From the NCBI GenBank assembly GCA_017479985.1, contig JAFVBL010000031.1, forward strand, positions 1 through 58,554: a stretch of DNA of 58,554 nt, written 5' to 3'. The notes under the pieces are model-generated. The model had not been told where the DNA came from. It saw only the letters and a program-made list of their open reading frames with translations, and ran no database searches. The translations under genes and the position numbers were made by a program. Position 1 is the first letter of the stretch, and each line of letters opens with the position of its first letter. The stretch comes from Alphaproteobacteria bacterium (lineage in GTDB: Bacteria > Pseudomonadota > Alphaproteobacteria > RF32 > CAG-239). Shown here piece by piece: positions 6,737 to 32,886 of the stretch.

Positions 6737-6743
6737 AACATTT

Positions 6744-6925
6744 GCCGGCGAGAGGTCGTCGGCGGAGTGTCACAACTCCACGAATAAAAAAATACTCCTC
6801 TGTTGGTGGGGAGCCGGCGGAATATATTGAATACGCCGGACTGATTATTCGCAGTTGTGAACTCCCGACCACTTTTTCGAGTGGTCGCTTTTGTTTTAAT
6901 TTAACAAATTAAGGAGTTCTGAACG
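6744..6925 (+). ncRNA. Structured leader / C4-CI-like antisense RNA candidate, copy 1
   Basis: Hairpins at 6744-6763 and 6764-6779. Cloverleaf 6804-6871 with arms CCGGCG/CGCCGG and ACTG/CAGT. Terminator hairpin 6866-6887 plus T tract. Confidence 0.7.
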
Positions 6926-7159
6926 ATGATAAACAACACAATAACCTTCAAACAACAAAATCTGAAAGAAATCGGACACGCATTATGGTTGGCACGACAG
7001 GAAAAACCTCTGTTTATCTATCAGGTTGCCAAACGCGCAAGAGTACCGATTGATATGATTGACGTAATGGAATTGGGGAAAGCCGTTGATGAATATAATC
7101 TGCGGAAATTACTCAAATTTTATGGTAAAAAAATGCGCATCGTGTTTGAAGAAAAGTGA
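6926..7159 (+). CDS. Small Xre/Cro-like helix-turn-helix protein, copy 1
   Basis: IGHALWLARQEK-x-IYQVAKRARVP-x-IDVMELGK fits the Xre HTH pattern. AAGGAG RBS. Paralogs at 19992 and 24223. Confidence 0.8.
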   Translation: MINNTITFKQQNLKEIGHALWLARQEKPLFIYQVAKRARVPIDMIDVMELGKAVDEYNLRKLLKFYGKKMRIVFEEK

Positions 7160-19767: not shown

Positions 19768-20216
19768 TTTTTGCTTGCAATTTATAAGGTTTGTTTTAAT
19801 ATAACCTTTGCCGGCGAGAGGTCGTCGGCGGAGTATCACAGCTCCTCGTATTAAATAAACTCCTCTATTGGTGGGGAGCCGGCGGAATATATTGAATACG
19901 CCGGACTGCTTATACGACAGTTGTGAACTCCCGACCACTTTTTCGAGTGGTCGCTTTTGTTTTGATTTAACAAATTAAGGAGTTCTGAACGATGATAAAC
20001 AACACAATAACCTTCAAACAGCAAAATCTGAAAGAAATCGGACACGCATTATGGCTGGCACGACAGGAAAAACATCTGTTTATCTATCAGGTTGCCAAAC
20101 GCGCAAGAGTACCGATTGATATGATTGACGTAATGGAATTGGGGAAAGCCGTTGATGAATACAATCTGCGGAAATTGCTCAAATTCTACGGCAAAAAAAT
20201 GCACATCGTGTTTGAA
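19768..20216 (+). repeat. Dispersed promoter-leader RNA-HTH cassette, copy 2
   Basis: Near-identical to copy 1. Begins 7 bp after the lnt stop codon. Confidence 0.95.
19810..19991 (+). ncRNA. Structured leader / C4-CI-like antisense RNA candidate, copy 2
   Basis: Same stems as copy 1. Differences fall in loops and linkers or keep pairing (ACTCC to GCTCC gives a U-G pair). Confidence 0.7.
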
Positions 20217-20219
20217 TAA
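19992..20219 (+). CDS. Small Xre/Cro-like HTH protein, copy 2
   Basis: 73 of 75 residues identical to copy 1. Confidence 0.8.
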   Translation: MINNTITFKQQNLKEIGHALWLARQEKHLFIYQVAKRARVPIDMIDVMELGKAVDEYNLRKLLKFYGKKMHIVFE

Positions 20220-22534: not shown

Positions 22535-22970
22535 AGTGTTGCCGGCAAAAGGCGAAATTATCGGCAAAGTTTTTGCGTATCCGGTGCGTGTGTATTATGA
22601 AGATACCGATGCCGGCGGAATAGTTTATTATGCCAATTACCTCAAGTTTGCCGAACGGGCGCGTACCGAATTTTTGCGCACATTGCAAGTGTGTCAGCAG
22701 GAGGATTTGGAACAAAAACAAACCGGTTTTGTGGTGCGTGCGTGTCATATCGAATATCTGAAATCGGCTGTCTTGGACGATGCTTTGGTTGTAACGTGTC
22801 AAGCGGCGGCGCAGGGGGCGGCAAGTGCAACGATTGCACAAGAGATTTTGCGCGGGGAAGAAGTGCTGGCAACTTTGGAAGTTAAAGTTATTTATATGAA
22901 TATTGCCACACATCGTCCGACGCGTATTCCGGCAGATATGACCGAAAAATTTAAACAGCTTCTTGTATAA
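22521..22970 (+). CDS. ybgC: Tol-pal-associated acyl-CoA thioesterase
   Basis: [26 protein letters not shown]. Start moved to ATG 22521. Confidence 0.93.
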
Positions 22971-23679
22971 GGAAAAAAAGGGGATATTTACGGAAATACA
23001 ACAAAAATTTTTGGAATATGCCGCTTCGCCGTATGCCGGTATTGACGGCGGCGATGAAAATGCCGAGTATTGGTTTGTCGGTATGGAATGGTCATCACGC
23101 GCAGATTTTGCGGAAAGCTATGAAAAATGGCAACAACAAGCTGAGAATCCATATTCAAAAAATGTTGATATCACAAAAGGTTCGTGGGTATTTGAAGAAA
23201 AATTGCAGGATATTTATCGGCGTTTACCGCACACCGTATGCGATAAAATGATTTTTGCCGAAGGTTCAAATTCATTTAAGCTGAATTTGTTTCCGCTTTC
23301 GTTTAATACCGATGATGAGAAGAAGAATTGGGCAAATGATGCAACGGCGCAAAAGACTGGTTTTGCCAATTTTAAGGCATATCAACAGGCGGTTGTTTCG
23401 GCGCGGCAAAAATTGTTTACCGAGCTGTTGAAGCTTAATCGAAAGGAAAAAACGATTTTTTGTTTCGGTACGGGATATTCGGAATATTTCGCTACGGCAT
23501 TTGATATTGCCGAATCGGATTTTGCTGAGCAAACAGCACGTCTTTCGGGTAATCGTCGCTTTTATGTTGCAGCTGCGAAAAATCCGTTAATAAAGAAAAT
23601 TATACTTTGTCCGTTTCCGCGCTATGCGTTTAATGATAAGGATATTGAAAAAATTAGCTCAATTATGATTGGCGTATGA
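22963..23679 (+). CDS. Hypothetical protein, possibly uracil-DNA-glycosylase-like fold
   Basis: GGDENAEYWFVGMEW, FKLNLFP, IFCFG and ILCPFP are spaced like UDG-superfamily motifs. The fold call is inference. Confidence 0.55.
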   Translation: MYKEKKGIFTEIQQKFLEYAASPYAGIDGGDENAEYWFVGMEWSSRADFAESYEKWQQQAENPYSKNVDITKGSWVFEEKLQDIYRRLPHTVCDKMIFAEGSNSFKLNLFPLSFNTDDEKKNWANDATAQKTGFANFKAYQQAVVSARQKLFTELLKLNRKEKTIFCFGTGYSEYFATAFDIAESDFAEQTARLSGNRRFYVAAAKNPLIKKIILCPFPRYAFNDKDIEKISSIMIGV

Positions 23680-23788
23680 TTATCAGATGCATTTTGCGCT
23701 GTCAGATGCGATAAAATAAAGTCATTCTTCGCAATGTGTCGTGCATCAGGTCATTAAGGAATCAGACCTTTACGTAGCGCTGTTTCTT
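23656..23788 (+). repeat. ~133-bp dispersed repeat, copy A (supplies the upstream gene's stop codon)
   Basis: Aligns with 28373-28504 from AGCTCAATTATGATT to TAGCGCTG(T/A)TTCTT. Confidence 0.9.
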
Positions 23789-23980: not shown

Positions 23981-24223
23981 TTAAGTTAAATTTTCATCAA
24001 AAACAATGCGCATTTTTCTGCCGTAAAATTCGGTTAGACGGCGTAATGCGGTGTGTTGAATAAATTTGCCGATTTCCATACCTTCAATCACTCGTGCCGG
24101 CAGATTGGTCCGATAGGCAACAGTGCGTAAATACATTCTTTTTTCGGTACGTAATTTCCATAATTCTGCCCCGATGGCACATAATGTTTCTTTATCCATA
24201 TAACAAGATTTAATTTTGGTCAT
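23981..24223 (-). CDS. Small Xre/Cro-like HTH protein, copy 3 (divergent)
   Basis: About 40% identical to copy 1 by manual alignment. Shares IG..LW..R.EK, VA.R..P..I..ME.GK and FYG.KMRIVF. Confidence 0.8.
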   Translation of the reverse strand: MTKIKSCYMDKETLCAIGAELWKLRTEKRMYLRTVAYRTNLPARVIEGMEIGKFIQHTALRRLTEFYGRKMRIVFDENLT

Positions 24224-24403
24224 TTTCAGAACTCCTTAATTTGTTAAATTAAAACAAAAACGACCACTCAAAAAGCGGTCGGGAGTTCCTAACTGCGAAT
24301 AATCAGTCCGGCGTATTCAATATATTCCGCCGGCTCCCCACCAACAGAGGAGTTAATTTTGTTTGCGGAGTTGTGACACTCCGCCGGCGGCCTCTTATCG
24401 GTA
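24224..24403 (-). ncRNA. Structured leader / C4-CI-like antisense RNA candidate, copy 3
   Basis: Reverse complement reads ...GGAGTGTCACAACTCC...CTCCTCTGTTGGTGGGGAGCCGGCGGAATATATTGAATACGCCGGACTGATTATTCGCAGTTAGGAACTCCCGACC...AAGGAGTTCTGAAAATG. Confidence 0.7.
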
Positions 24404-24409
24404 AAAATT

Positions 24410-28389: not shown

Positions 28390-28504
28390 CGTATGATGTA
28401 TCGGATGCATTTTGCGCTGTCAGATGCGATAATAAGGTCATACCTCGCAGTGTGCCGTGCATCGGGTCGTTAAGGAAACAGACCTTTGTGTAGCGCTGAT
28501 TCTT
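28373..28504 (+). repeat. ~133-bp dispersed repeat, copy B (supplies the trmL stop codon)
   Basis: Aligns with 23656-23788. Confidence 0.9.
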
Positions 28505-28537
28505 CAGTTTATGTAAAAAGGCTTATCAATAAAATAT

Positions 28538-28566
28538 TTGACTTTCGTTTATGCGTGTGCTAATTT
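28538..28566 (+). promoter_or_regulatory. Putative sigma70 promoter (extended -10)
   Basis: TTGACT-N17-TAATTT with TG one base upstream of the -10. Confidence 0.6.
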
Positions 28567-28572
28567 TTTATT

Positions 28573-28800
28573 GCATCGGGTAAGTCCCCGATGTGAGGTT
28601 CGAAGACCTCAATAGGTTGTGTAGACATTAGATTATCTTTAATTCTACGCGTAAAAAGCTACTTTCTTGCATTGGCAGGAAGGTAGGAAATAAGGTGTCG
28701 CTCATTCGAGCGGCACCGAATACCTACGCTATACCTATTGTAGTTTTCGACTTCCTGCTATCTTTCTAAGATAGCTTTTTTTATCTGCAAGAAAGGAAAG
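28573..28800 (+). ncRNA. Structured leader with the same architecture as the HTH-cassette leaders (sequence-divergent)
   Basis: Hairpins 28573-28594 and 28595-28610. Cloverleaf closed by GGCAGGAAG/CTTCCTGCT (28674-28759). Terminator GCTATCTT/AAGATAGC plus T7 (28757-28782). Confidence 0.65.
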
Positions 28801-28803
28801 TTG

Positions 28804-29106
28804 ATGAAAAAATATCATATTATGAAAGCGGGCGAATTGGTACGTGTGGTCGAAGATGTGCGAAATGAGTATTTCTTATCGTATCAGGACAGTATGATTA
28901 TGTTGGCGTTGAATTATATGAGCGAATCGCAAAAATTACGGGTGTTGCGCTACATCGTTGAGTTGACCGGCGGCGCAATATTGAACGAAGTGCCGATGAA
29001 ACTGCCGGAAAAAGAAAACGAGGCAAAGTATTTGCGTATTTGCACCAAATGCGGTAACTTGCGCACAGATGATGAGGAACCGAGGTGTATCGAATACCAC
29101 CGATAA
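28804..29106 (+). CDS. Small hypothetical protein with C-terminal CxxC
   Basis: AAGGA RBS, 100 aa and CTKC...C..H near the C-terminus. Confidence 0.65.
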   Translation: MKKYHIMKAGELVRVVEDVRNEYFLSYQDSMIMLALNYMSESQKLRVLRYIVELTGGAILNEVPMKLPEKENEAKYLRICTKCGNLRTDDEEPRCIEYHR

Positions 29107-29248
29107 TTCTATTTTTTTGGGGCTCTATTAAATGACTTTGTTAAAAACTTTTCAGCAAATTTATAAAATAAAACGTTTTGTAAAAAGTTCTTGATTTTTG
29201 TCTACGTTTGGTGTAATATAATCATATATAAGACCGATGAGGAGAAAA

Positions 29249-30307
29249 ATGATGTCCATAAAAGATGATATTAAAAATATGAAAGATAAATTGTTGCTGA
29301 CAGGTATATTGACGGCGGTGTCTTTGAGTGGTAATGCGCAGACGTCGTTTCAGCGCTATCAATCACAAAAACAGAAAGAGTCAACGGAATATAATGCGCA
29401 GAAAGCTCAGCAAATGCAAGATTATAAAGATGCTAAAACGGCGCAATTTAATGCATACGCGAATGGTTCGAGAACATCTGGAGAAGAAATGGTTCCAATG
29501 GTGGATCAACCTGTGGAGACAGGTGTCTCTAAGGCGTGGGTGTCTTGTTACCCTGTTGCAGAGATTTTGAAAATCAATATCAAAGTGGCAGAAGAATCTC
29601 CCGACGGTTCAATGTATTATTACAGCGGGGACAACGGAGTTGCTCTCAAAGCTACCGATGGTAAGTATTACGGAGCGGTTTTAGAAGATGACGGAATACA
29701 TTATTATGAAACTTCCATGAATGAGACCGATACAAAAACAGAAATAAACAATCAAGGGATTCAAAATGCTTTGGCAAAGGTAAATGAGAGATACGGCGAT
29801 GCCGGTTCAGCCTTTTCGCAAGCTTTGCAACAAGTCCAAACTCAAGCACGGACGCAACAAACAACAATAAATGCGTCTCAGGACAATACGCAATGGCAAA
29901 CCATTCAAAATGAACACGGTCAAATCCAATATGCATTTACCGAAGCCGGAATAAAACTTTCTGGAAATATACATATTGATGTCAGTGAACTGATGCCGAC
30001 AAAAACATTTTATAATAAGAAGACAAAGATATATACTGTCGGAACTTCGCAGTCTCATTTTCAAACTCAGGCGCGGAACAATGAAGAACAAAAAATCAGA
30101 ACTCTTGTTGTTCATAATGACATATATAAAGATTTACAACAGCAGCAAAAGGCAGGTAAAATATTGAATACGCAAGAGAGCCGTTTTATGCAGCAACATA
30201 TTAAGGATTTGGCAAAAGAAGGAATTAGTATGAATGCACAGGGCAAATTGATTCAGACAAACAACTATGCAGCCAATACACAGATAAATGGTGGTATGAC
30301 ACGGTAG
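29249..30307 (+). CDS. Hypothetical secreted Gln/Thr-rich protein
   Basis: GAGGAG RBS and signal-like LLLTGILTAVSLSGNAQ. Confidence 0.7.
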   Translation: MMSIKDDIKNMKDKLLLTGILTAVSLSGNAQTSFQRYQSQKQKESTEYNAQKAQQMQDYKDAKTAQFNAYANGSRTSGEEMVPMVDQPVETGVSKAWVSCYPVAEILKINIKVAEESPDGSMYYYSGDNGVALKATDGKYYGAVLEDDGIHYYETSMNETDTKTEINNQGIQNALAKVNERYGDAGSAFSQALQQVQTQARTQQTTINASQDNTQWQTIQNEHGQIQYAFTEAGIKLSGNIHIDVSELMPTKTFYNKKTKIYTVGTSQSHFQTQARNNEEQKIRTLVVHNDIYKDLQQQQKAGKILNTQESRFMQQHIKDLAKEGISMNAQGKLIQTNNYAANTQINGGMTR

Positions 30308-30328: not shown

Positions 30329-30383
30329 TTATTACTAAAAAAACACCATCAAGAAATTATTGATGGTGTTTTTTTAGTAATAA
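30329..30383. terminator. Perfect 24-bp inverted repeat; bidirectional terminator
   Basis: TTATTACTAAAAAAACACCATCAA-N7-TTGATGGTGTTTTTTTAGTAATAA between convergent genes. Confidence 0.8.
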
Positions 30384-30420: not shown

Positions 30421-32886
30421 TTATTTTTTGGCGGTGACGATTTTTATGGCTTCTTCCGCTGTCAGTTCACTCGGAGCATAGCCTTTCGGAATGGCATAAT
30501 TGTTGCGTCCGCATTTCAAATACATTCCGTATCGACCTTTGCTTAACACAATATCTTCCTTTGTTTTCGGATGCTTGGCCAAAACTTTCGGTTCCGGCTT
30601 GGCAATCGCGTGCTGCAATATTTCCGCAGCGCGTTCCGGCGTGATGTTGAAAATATTATCCGTACCGGTCAGAGATTTAGATTTTGTGCCTTGTTTGACG
30701 TATTGCCCGAATTTGCCGATGTTGACTTCAATACCGTTGCCTAAATCGCGCGGCAGAGAAATTAAAATTTCCGCCTGCTTCGGTGTCAGTTCTTCCGGCT
30801 TAACAAACTTAGGCAGAGCAACACGTTTCGGTTTTTCTGTGGTGGCGGTGGCATCTTCGCCGAGCTGAACATAAAAACCGTACGGGCCTTTTTTGAGATA
30901 TACATTCATATCATTGTATTGACACATCAGCTTATTTTCATTTTGCGTCGGACGAATCGCTGTATCGGTTGCATCTTTTTGCTCTTCTTCTTTGGTATCT
31001 GTCAACGGTTTGGTGTAACTGCATTCCGGATAATTCGAACAGCCCAAAAAAGCGCCGTATTTACCGAATTTTATGCTGAGATGTCCGGTATGACACTGCG
31101 GACAACTGCGAGGGTCCGAACCGTCTTCGCGCGGCGGAAACAGGTGTGCCGAAAGTGCCTCATCAATACGGTTGATAACTTCACTCAGCTGCAGCGGTTG
31201 AACACTTTCCACCGTTTTGATGAACTTTGCCCAAAAACCGCCGAGGAGTTTTTTCCATTCCATATTGCCGGCAGAAACGTCATCGAGAAATTCTTCCAAT
31301 TGTGCCGTAAAATCGTATTCCACATATTTTTTGAAAAAATTCTCCAAAAATACGGTTACAATGCGCCCGCGGTCTTCCGGAATAAAGCGCAGTTTTTCGA
31401 CCTTTACGTATTTTCGCTCCTGTAATACGGCAATAATATTGGCATAAGTCGACGGACGCCCGATACCGAGTTCTTCAAGCTTTTTAACCAAACTTGCTTC
31501 GGTAAAGCGCGGCGGCGGCGTGGTAAAGTGTTGCGTCGGTTTTATTTCGCCTTTGCTGACTTTTTCGCCGGTCTCGACATTCGGCAGAATAACATTGTCA
31601 TCATCTTCGTCCGAATCGTCTTTGCTCTCTTGATACAGTTTTAAGAAACCGTCAAATTGAATAACTTGTCCGGTGGCGCGCAGCAATATTTTTTCGTCTG
31701 CCGATTTGGCATCGACCACAACTTTATCGAGAATCGCCGGATTCATCTGACAGGCAACGGTACGTTTCCAAATCAATTCATAAAGTTTGTGCGCGTCGGA
31801 ATCCAGTTTGAGTTCCATTTTTTTCGGGGTATTCATCACATCGGACGGACGGATTGCCTCGTGTGCTTCCTGTGCGTTTTTGGTTTTGTTTTTATATTCT
31901 TTGGCGGTTTTCGGCAAATATGGTGCTCCGAAATATTTTTCAATTGCTTCGCGGCACGCCTTTATCGCATCTTTGGAAAGATTGACGGCATCGGTACGCA
32001 TATAAGTGATAAAACCGTCTTCATACAGTTTTTGTGCCACCTGCATCGTTTTTTTGGCTGAAAAGCGTAATTTACGCGCCGCTTCTTGTTGCAAGGTGGA
32101 GGTTGTAAACGGCGGCGCCGGATAGCGGCTGGCTTTTTTGCGCTCTACGTTGTCAATATGGAAATCCTGTGCTTCGATTTTGGCTTTGGCGTCGGCAGCT
32201 TTTTCTGCCGTGTTTAGTGTAAATTTAGCTAATTTTTTGCCGTCGAGATTGATGAGATGTGTCAGCATTTGCGCATTGTTTTGTGTCAGTAAATTGACAT
32301 CAACCGTCCAATATTCTTCCGGCTTAAATTTTTCGATTTCGTTTTCACGTTCGCAAATCAGACGCAAGGCGACCGATTGTACGCGTCCGGCAGACTTGGA
32401 ACCCGGCAGTTTGCGCCACAAAACCGGTGAAAGCGTAAAGCCCACCAAATAGTCAAGCGCACGCCGCGCCATATAGGCACTGACCAAATCTTGGTCAATT
32501 TCACGCGGATTTTCGATACCTTCTTTAACAGCAGATTTTGTGATTTCGTGGAAAACAACACGCTCTATTTTTTTACCGCTCAGTTTCTTTTTTTCTTTAA
32601 GTTCTTCCAAAATATGCCACGCAATCGCTTCTCCTTCTCTATCCGGGTCGGAGGCGAGAATCAATGTGTCACAGTCTTTTAGGGCGGCAATAATATCGTT
32701 GAGGTGTTTGCGGCCGGCGGCGCTGAACTCCCATTGCATTGCAAAATCGTGTTCAGGGTCAACCGAACCGTCTTTGCTCGGCAAATCGCGAATATGTCCG
32801 TAGCTGGCCAGAACTTTGTAGTCCGAACCCAGATACTTGTTGATTGTTTTGGCTTTTGCCGGAGATTCCACAACGACTAATTTCAT
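30421..32886 (-). CDS. topA: DNA topoisomerase I
   Basis: VVESPAKAK, DPDREGE, SAGRVQS, ITYMRTD, AHEAIRP and a zinc ribbon. Confidence 0.98.
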   Translation of the reverse strand: MKLVVVESPAKAKTINKYLGSDYKVLASYGHIRDLPSKDGSVDPEHDFAMQWEFSAAGRKHLNDIIAALKDCDTLILASDPDREGEAIAWHILEELKEKKKLSGKKIERVVFHEITKSAVKEGIENPREIDQDLVSAYMARRALDYLVGFTLSPVLWRKLPGSKSAGRVQSVALRLICERENEIEKFKPEEYWTVDVNLLTQNNAQMLTHLINLDGKKLAKFTLNTAEKAADAKAKIEAQDFHIDNVERKKASRYPAPPFTTSTLQQEAARKLRFSAKKTMQVAQKLYEDGFITYMRTDAVNLSKDAIKACREAIEKYFGAPYLPKTAKEYKNKTKNAQEAHEAIRPSDVMNTPKKMELKLDSDAHKLYELIWKRTVACQMNPAILDKVVVDAKSADEKILLRATGQVIQFDGFLKLYQESKDDSDEDDDNVILPNVETGEKVSKGEIKPTQHFTTPPPRFTEASLVKKLEELGIGRPSTYANIIAVLQERKYVKVEKLRFIPEDRGRIVTVFLENFFKKYVEYDFTAQLEEFLDDVSAGNMEWKKLLGGFWAKFIKTVESVQPLQLSEVINRIDEALSAHLFPPREDGSDPRSCPQCHTGHLSIKFGKYGAFLGCSNYPECSYTKPLTDTKEEEQKDATDTAIRPTQNENKLMCQYNDMNVYLKKGPYGFYVQLGEDATATTEKPKRVALPKFVKPEELTPKQAEILISLPRDLGNGIEVNIGKFGQYVKQGTKSKSLTGTDNIFNITPERAAEILQHAIAKPEPKVLAKHPKTKEDIVLSKGRYGMYLKCGRNNYAIPKGYAPSELTAEEAIKIVTAKK

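Follow-up and report, generated by a model that had tools for sequence, protein, structure and literature searches.

Two published RNA families resemble, each in its own way, the element described here. In Bartonella, nine abundant RNAs of about 200 nucleotides (nt), Brt1-9, end before poorly transcribed genes for XRE-type proteins (Trp); in the consulted parts of the original report they are described as Bartonella-specific and always linked to trp genes, and an antitermination riboswitch is proposed in which the 3' terminator region converts to an antitermination form (Tu et al. 2016, PMC5387305). The second, sRNA-Xcc1, is an RNA of about 87 nt from Xanthomonas integron cassettes, whose Xylella homologs are annotated, in the portion of PMC12189769 consulted, as stand-alone small RNAs (sRNAs). 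The element in question, locus 4, consists of a structured leader RNA of about 210 nt and the gene for a 100-amino-acid (aa) protein, its cargo. It lies on a stretch of 58,554 nt (the window), which is one contig (C25; JAFVBL010000031.1) of a 1.18-Mb alphaproteobacterial draft genome, 83 % complete, and which also carries three leaders in front of genes for small helix-turn-helix (HTH) proteins (copies 1-3).

Two other designs are pertinent. In ON riboswitches of the pbuE adenine type, the closing stem P1 of a three-way junction has bases in common with the 5' arm of the terminator, and a stabilised P1 prevents termination. The C4 antisense RNA of phages P1 and P7 and isrK are processed or terminated structured RNAs upstream of a pairable mRNA region, with complementary strands on both sides.

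We consider it fairly probable that locus 4 is a self-contained transcription unit whose leader, able to adopt two folds, works as a read-through switch controlling the cargo gene; in short, the leader probably decides whether the gene behind it is read. The unit would be organised as its own promoter, the leader RNA, an intrinsic terminator and the gene (Table 1). In the rod, which would be the default fold, arm 2 and the 3' junction strand would be taken up by hairpin 2 and the bases that follow it, and the 5' junction strand by the pyrimidine-rich "anti" strand. Since the terminator is complete in the rod, transcription most likely ends at 28782 and a short RNA would be released. In the junction fold, P1 would take four bases of the terminator stem (28757-28760 are common to both helices) and leave a weak remnant of 4-5 bp, so that the polymerase should continue into the cargo gene; the junction would then be the "on" state. 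Some trigger would have to favour it, be it a ligand, a protein, another RNA or the kinetics of transcription.

Table 1. Positions of the parts of locus 4 and of the three HTH leaders in the window
Feature	Position	Strand	Basis or remark
HTH leader copy 1	6740-6898; XRE-type open reading frame (ORF) 6926-7159	+	models and ORF
HTH leader copy 2	19806-19964; XRE-type ORF 19992-20219	+	models and ORF
HTH leader copy 3	24250-24406; XRE-type ORF 23981-24223	-	models and ORF
Promoter (sigma-70-type)	28538-28566	+	-35 TTGACT 28538-28543, 17-nt spacer, -10 TAATTT 28561-28566
Hairpin 1 (8 bp)	28573-28580 with 28587-28594	+	present in rod and junction folds
Switch strand	28595-28617	+	partner differs between junction and rod folds
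Hairpin 2 (junction-fold form of switch strand)	28595-28600 with 28605-28610	+	computed fold
Rod pairing of switch strand	28595-28607 with 28743-28754; 28610-28617 with 28733-28740	+	computed fold
Variable hairpin 3 (13 bp)	28619-28650	+	long in locus 4 and its ortholog; short or absent in other copies
A-run and pyrimidine "anti" strand	28653-28671 (anti 28662-28671)	+	free in junction fold
Rod pairing of anti strand	28659-28670 with 28675-28686	+	computed fold
Three-way junction	28673-28760	+	computed fold; RF02221 match at 24.7 bits, model positions 1-87
Junction closing stem P1	about 28673-28682 with 28751-28760	+	computed fold
Junction arm 1	28683-28687 with 28723-28727; 28694-28703 with 28708-28717 (spans 28683-28727)	+	computed fold
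Junction arm 2	28728-28733 with 28739-28744 (spans 28728-28744)	+	computed fold
Intrinsic terminator	28757-28782; 8-bp stem 28757-28764 with 28768-28775, seven T 28776-28782	+	fold and terminator scan
Ribosome-binding region	28786-28800	+	includes 28786-28795, perfect 10-nt complement of anti strand
Cargo ORF (100 aa from ATG)	28804-29106	+	open reading frame

The RNA parts were first proposed in an earlier note made from the sequence alone. The hairpins, the anti strand and its complement at the ribosome-binding site (RBS), the junction with two arms and the terminator with its run of seven T all lie where that note had placed them, within a 414-nt spacer between a trmL-like gene (end 28389) and the cargo ORF. 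The promoter claimed there has also held up: in 18 aligned upstream regions of relatives, only TTGAC, a 17-nt spacer and TAnnnT form conserved columns, and the leader element therefore has its own promoter, although the locus-4 promoter is not among the calls of a simple promoter scanner. Transcription would start near 28573. At the other end of the leader, a partner-swap comparison shows that the terminator arms of relatives favour their own partner.

Whether locus 4 and the HTH leaders belong together was decided with covariance models. R1 was built from 33 HTH-type leaders (copies 1-3 and 30 homologs; effective sequence number 1.78) and is about 50 nt shorter than locus 4. R2 was built from 20 locus-4-type leaders, one of them a copy on another contig of the same genome (C42:5641); because this copy has an HTH-type 5' half, the model was rebuilt as R3 without it. 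Locus 4 itself is in both training sets; its ortholog and 17 other relatives define the model, and the HTH leaders lie outside. On the window, R2 gives locus 4 149.5 bits and aligns the HTH leaders at full length with 44.7, 43.7 and 25.6 bits (E 1.6e-9, 3e-9 and 9e-5), the next matches being the antisense strand of locus 4 (16.4 bits) and an unrelated site (15.4 bits). With R3 the corresponding scores are 155.1 bits for locus 4 and 37.3, 37.2 and 23.2 bits for the HTH leaders (E 1.8e-7, 1.9e-7 and 4.9e-4), and the best unrelated match in the window reaches 11.6 bits. In the R2 alignments hairpin 1, hairpin 2, P1, arm 1, arm 2 and the terminator each fall on their counterpart in the HTH leaders.

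R3 also recognises 36 of 36 further loci, each with one full-length match (E 1.4e-14 to 6.4e-3). They represent three sequence types, namely type A before HTH genes (30 loci), type B before glycosyltransferases and others (5 loci) and type C, the locus-4 type (1 locus). Certain blocks are common across the types, i.e., the loop of hairpin 2, the 3' junction strand, the AAUA/GAAUAC loop of arm 1 and the purine-rich closing strand, and the C42:5641 copy is an intermediate that combines an HTH-type 5' half with a junction of the locus-4 type. Locus 4 and the three HTH leaders are one family, a conclusion that follows from the full-length alignment of the HTH leaders by R2 and R3 together with the 36 R3 matches. 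The sequence of locus 4 is diverged, not unrelated, and the earlier description of "unrelated sequence" and "full sequence turnover" does not stand, given the common blocks, the intermediates and the alignments by R2 and R3.

One result points the other way. The earlier note had regarded its reading as refuted if a model from copies 1-3 and their homologs could not align locus 4 and probing showed a different fold; on the first point R1, which gives its own three copies 140-167 bits, reaches only 10.6 bits on locus 4 (E 0.49) and covers 28570-28647, hence a part of it. Nor was BLAST-level similarity reported between locus 4 and copies 1-3. Both observations would fit a separate RNA family whose likeness to the HTH leaders arose by chance or convergence. 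We find this hardly credible, since the reciprocal models reproduce the order of all helices (E down to 1.8e-7 with R3), all 36 copies of three types are recognised by R3, the C42:5641 copy bridges the types, and the curated model RF02221 (sRNA-Xcc1) matches all four loci end to end, although below threshold (26.1, 23.1 and 21.8 bits on the three HTH leaders).

The leader is markedly more stable than expected from its composition. Its 245 nt fold with -96.6 kcal/mol as compared to -55.8 +/- 4.6 kcal/mol for shuffled sequences (z -8.87, none of 200 as good), and the junction folded alone still has a z of -6.04. The unconstrained minimum-energy fold of 28569-28785 is the rod, with -92.1 kcal/mol and an intact terminator; the 12-bp bulged pairing between 28595-28607 and 28743-28754 that had been proposed from the sequence forms part of it. 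Enforcing P1 produces the junction fold, with -84.3 kcal/mol.

The rod is strongly supported by compensatory changes in the aligned sequences. On an alignment of 20 relatives (A1), 97.1 % of the cells are paired, as compared to 38-61 % when the partner is slid, and changes on both sides occur in 7 of 24 pairs (31 cells); in the helix formed by the anti strand 96.7 % of the cells are paired across the 20 relatives. In the 33 HTH leaders, changes on both sides occur in 23 of 38 pairs (174 cells), including all 7 pairs of a helix between the linker and the arm-2 loop. In an alignment-free test, the cognate long-range rod partner was the best of all distinct partners in 18 of the 20 locus-4-type leaders; at locus 4 it pairs with -25.6 kcal/mol against a mean of -13.0 kcal/mol, and none of the 19 others is as good. 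Hairpin 1, which is part of both folds, has an equivalent in the HTH leaders in which 6 of 7 pairs are changed on both sides.

For the junction, 93.8 % of the A1 cells are paired (41-55 % after sliding) and 7 of 24 pairs are changed on both sides, one of them in P1 and three in arm 2. The rod does not call for the 9-bp complementarity of P1, and it leaves the arm-2 strands, invariant in the HTH leaders, unpaired. Both folds are taken here as real, the junction with less proof than the rod. As to the coupling with termination, the terminator is intact in the rod fold of 19 of the 20 locus-4-type leaders and wholly absent from the P1-enforced fold in 17 of them; a second count, made among 18 relatives with a scorable terminator, has it lost in 15.

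Several results weigh against the read-through switch. The junction is less stable than the rod, by 7.8 kcal/mol at locus 4 and by 11.0 kcal/mol on average in the 18 relatives scored. P1 and arm 2 are invariant in the 33 HTH leaders, so that there is no covariation in these helices and they are uninformative either way. When the anti strand is shuffled, the terminator is still lost in 60 % of the trials in the locus-4 group and in 100 % at locus 4 itself; the loss is mostly due to the overlap of P1 and terminator as such. In the HTH leaders this overlap amounts to 1-2 bases only, and the terminator survives enforced P1 in 22 of 33 (it is lost in 11); the overlap mechanism is therefore not cleanly general across the family. 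Finally, a conserved antiterminator helix (28653-28664 with 28768-28780) was considered and rejected: it is present in the P1-enforced fold, but shows no cognate preference, 13 of 19 non-cognate partners being as good or better at locus 4.

The complementarity between the anti strand and the RBS raises the question of whether the leader acts mainly on translation instead, the free anti strand (28662-28671) masking the RBS at 28786-28795 in the read-through mRNA and the rod freeing the site. The 10-nt complement is indeed perfect at locus 4, and the P1-enforced minimum-energy fold of leader plus RBS does pair the anti strand with the RBS region. In this junction fold the anti strand takes 0.47 of the pairing of the downstream region at locus 4 and at least 0.19 in 11 of 19 relatives, as opposed to 0 in the rod. 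In addition, by our own reading, the RBS region copies the purine strand of P1 in several relatives. However, the share is about 0 in the other 8 of 19 relatives, the ortholog (L002) does not have a perfect match, and the mean unpaired probability, computed on fixed 45-nt downstream windows, shifts little at locus 4, from 0.60 to 0.48. Taken alone, this mechanism also conflicts with the terminator logic, since the fold that permits read-through would hide the RBS. We therefore regard mainly translational control as improbable. The pairing proposed earlier thus stands at locus 4 itself but is not a general feature of the family, and it is confined to the junction fold.

A different possibility, which we think unlikely, is that locus 4 is mainly a stand-alone trans-acting sRNA, as has been proposed for Brt1 and sRNA-Xcc1. 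It would always end at 28782 and use its exposed pyrimidine or purine strands to act on other mRNAs, the downstream gene being leakily expressed or unrelated. Such an RNA would be expected to have its own promoter and, in its most stable fold, a complete terminator, as locus 4 does. Furthermore, three copies elsewhere in the genome (C42:5641, C14:10174 and C28:48513) do not have a convincing ORF behind them, nor do 2 of 30 loci in other genomes have an ORF of at least 50 aa starting within about 150 nt downstream. Precedents exist in the sections consulted of two papers, according to which knock-down of Brt1 altered badA expression (PMC5387305) and the Xylella homologs of sRNA-Xcc1 form tandem gene-less arrays (PMC12189769). 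On the other hand, an ORF starts at most about 33 nt past the RNA end in 28 of the 30 loci of other genomes, and an ORF of about 75 aa within about 33 nt in 22 of 29 HTH-type loci. At locus 4 only 21 nt separate the T-run from the ATG, which leaves no room for a second promoter, and a plain sRNA does not need two conserved, mutually exclusive folds. The roles of sRNA and read-through switch are in any case compatible: the terminated RNA may also act in trans, and control of translation may accompany the switch.

Finally, the palindromes might act as DNA, in a repeated element such as a repetitive extragenic palindrome (REP), a miniature inverted-repeat transposable element (MITE) or an integron attC-like site. 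The many copies per genome would agree with this, as would the contigs that break inside copies and the fact that, in another species, the module and its orthologous cargo have different chromosomal surroundings. Yet G-U pairs are common on the given strand (e.g., one pair is U-G in 29 of 33 rows, another is G-U in 13 of 33), and the reverse strand scores far lower, with 16.3 against 155.1 bits for R3 and 15.1 against 167.4 bits for R1. Moreover, promoter and T-tract terminator have a fixed orientation to the downstream ORF, and terminal repeats or target duplications were not seen, although no systematic search for them was made. A DNA element is accordingly a very improbable explanation, and the read-through switch is retained as the working model.

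Within the genus, leaders of the locus-4 type are detected by BLAST in 13 of 36 other genomes, the ortholog L002 being 79 % identical over the whole leader. For HTH-type leaders the figure is 30 of 49 other genomes, with at most 13 matches in any of them (9 in the genome of the window). R2 has matches in 126 of 151 genomes of the order and in all 20 genera sampled, with up to at least 16 matches per genome; across the class, with one genome drawn per family, it has matches in 11 of 151 genomes. The genome of the window contains at least 21 leader loci, 9 of type A, 5 of type B and 7 of type C. Four of its contigs end in or beside HTH-type copies (C38:35873-35934, C4:22771-22832, C13:214-343 and C7:33225-33382). 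Since the leader repeats break the assembly, copy numbers are lower bounds. The relatives are metagenome-assembled genomes of uncultured rumen and gut Alphaproteobacteria; a search with a single HTH protein gave these and one weak other. At the level of similarity that blastn detects, locus 4 and copy 1 have no match in a plasmid collection.

What stands behind the leaders is diverse. Past each of the three HTH leaders of the window, an ORF of 75-80 aa starts after about 27 nt. Pfam alone gives weak HTH matches for such ORFs; a profile of 17 of them matched XRE-fold proteins of the PDB, HigA being the best (E 3e-6). In copy 3 (24250-24406, minus strand) hairpin 1 and the two rod helices all contain mismatches, and the junction is the more stable fold (E(J)-E(R) = -12.2 kcal/mol), as in few other copies; this copy may be locked "on" or decaying.

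In a survey of 30 locus-4-type leaders from 30 other genomes, an ORF of at least 50 aa starts within about 33 nt in 28. The Pfam names assigned to this cargo comprise outer-membrane beta-barrels (3), GT2 glycosyltransferases (2), a PLD-like protein, a pilin and a zinc-ribbon protein, and, by our own reading, the N-terminus resembles that of type IV pilins in at least five of the proteins and is a lipoprotein signal in several. In the genome of the window the cargo includes an N6/N4 DNA methylase, an EcoRI-type adenine methylase, three GT2 enzymes and a sulfatase-family protein, the two DNA methyltransferase genes lying directly behind their leaders (C12:29220-30425, N6_N4_Mtase, E 3e-35; C41:65162-66151, EcoRI_methylase, E 1.7e-137). 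The three copies without a convincing ORF (C42:5641-5828, C14:10174-10359 and C28:48513-48697, all on the minus strand) are of the locus-4 type, score 99-111 bits with R2 and have a common conserved downstream stretch; they may be gene-less small RNAs or precede another structured RNA. The diversity of the cargo, together with the reciprocal covariance models, the shared covariation and the end-to-end RF02221 matches at the four loci, bears out the earlier suggestion that the RNA family is real and its cargo interchangeable.

The protein encoded at locus 4 itself is small, helical and an orphan, its family being tiny and lineage-restricted. It has 2 relatives among 5.8 billion clusters and 7 matches among 1.84 billion representatives, five of which are true relatives and two long repeat proteins with low-complexity Pfam signals only. 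Three more distant paralogs stand behind other leaders (L020, L013 and, in the same genome, C21:1214). In the leaders of L020 and L013, by our own reading, the pyrimidine word that makes up the anti strand of locus 4 recurs in the apical loop of arm 1. The protein belongs to no Pfam family, gives no HTH signal and has no relative of solved structure in a profile search of the PDB. Its AlphaFold model has four helices (mean predicted local distance difference test score, pLDDT, 70.9), no Foldseek match at E <=0.001 and a best VIA-align Z of 3.0. The earlier note was thus right that the cargo is not an HTH protein, but its label of a CxxC protein does not describe the family, as only the window's copy among nine aligned sequences carries CxxC. 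In G036 the ortholog module adjoins lpxD/fabZ-like genes and not trmL; therefore, either the module has moved or its surroundings have changed.

If the leader is indeed a read-through switch, a single RNA design controls some twenty unrelated units per small genome in a widespread rumen and gut group, and most of these units are surface structures, enzymes of surface sugars, DNA methylases and small regulators. It would also supply a structural model, with two covarying folds that mutations could lock one at a time, for the poorly understood Brt and sRNA-Xcc1 RNAs, and define an orphan switch whose trigger can be sought. More speculatively, and we hold this to be possible rather than probable, the family could be a new class of RNA switch that gates "contingency-type" genes and resets cell surface and methylome together. 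The gated set would consist of pilins, outer-membrane and opacity-like proteins, glycosyltransferases, a sulfatase-family envelope enzyme, orphan DNA methylases and small regulators, and the roughly 20 units per 1.2-1.8-Mb genome would follow either a shared signal or a stochastic co-transcriptional choice between rod and junction. Were this the case, the system would be an RNA-level counterpart of the DNA-level phase variation of other host-adapted bacteria. The narrower gain is to have united the HTH leaders and locus 4, despite its different sequence, in one family, and to have shown that the cargo is not restricted to regulators.

A few other features of the window may be mentioned. A 34-nt palindromic element occurs at 28399-28432 and at 23681-23714, with 97 % identity between the sites, each time directly past a stop codon, i.e., that of the trmL-like gene and that of ORF 22963-23679. 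Directly past the locus-4 cargo, ORF 29237-30307 encodes a 356-aa Gln-rich protein with a signal-like N-terminus and no Pfam family, and a promoter-like site lies upstream of it at 29141-29169. Between this ORF and the convergent topA (30421-32886, minus strand), a near-perfect (96 %) 27-nt inverted repeat at 30329-30383 is probably a bidirectional terminator. A permissive Rfam scan of the whole window found miRNA-like matches on this palindrome only. At the gathering threshold no Rfam family, riboswitch families included, is present in the window, and neither a tRNA nor a tmRNA was found.

How, then, does locus 4 compare with the systems described at the outset? It is like the ON riboswitches of the pbuE type in that P1 and terminator are mutually exclusive, but differs from them by its long rod with covariation support and, unlike metabolite riboswitches, the family has 20 or so copies per genome in front of unrelated genes. 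The likeness to C4 and isrK would be one of layout. The C4 model (RF01695) has no match at any leader of the genome and one match elsewhere (E 2.83), the 14 weak matches of the isrK model (RF01394) in the genome include none at a leader, and neither family is among the Rfam matches at E up to 10 in 28400-29250.

The permissive Rfam scan of locus 4 returned sRNA-Xcc1 and a chance-level match to PyrR (E 1) only. The stretch 28674-28767 aligns with positions 1-87 of RF02221 at 24.7 bits (E 0.087), below the gathering score of 53 bits. All 12 matches of this model in the genome, likewise sub-threshold (21-38.5 bits, E 1.6e-5 to 0.22), lie at leader copies, and at E up to 10 it has matches in 2 of 14 control genomes. 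The resemblance consists in a closing stem, two hairpins and an unpaired U-rich 3' junction strand, the same topology being found in the fold of 28672-28785, and in the presence of multiple copies, as reported for the Xylella homologs in the consulted portion of PMC12189769. Here, however, the leader is about 210 nt long and the junction makes up only its 3' half; a rod fold competes with the junction, and the leader has its own promoter and a cargo gene behind it.

The Brt RNAs, compared by their published description in the parts of PMC5387305 consulted, are likewise alphaproteobacterial, multi-copy, structured, about 200 nt long and provided with a terminator-like end directly upstream of a gene; copies 1-3 share in addition the small XRE-type HTH protein downstream. 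The present family differs in that the cargo of locus 4 is a non-HTH orphan, that the leaders precede many kinds of genes, and that they belong to uncultured rumen and gut lineages. A two-fold structure with covariation is absent from the consulted parts of PMC5387305, and abstracts on Brt follow-ups and on sRNA-Xcc1 give no account of the leader family or of two folds, which at this level is weak evidence. On the basis of these comparisons, Brt/Trp appears to be the closest system in layout, and sRNA-Xcc1 the closest in the catalogue, albeit below threshold.

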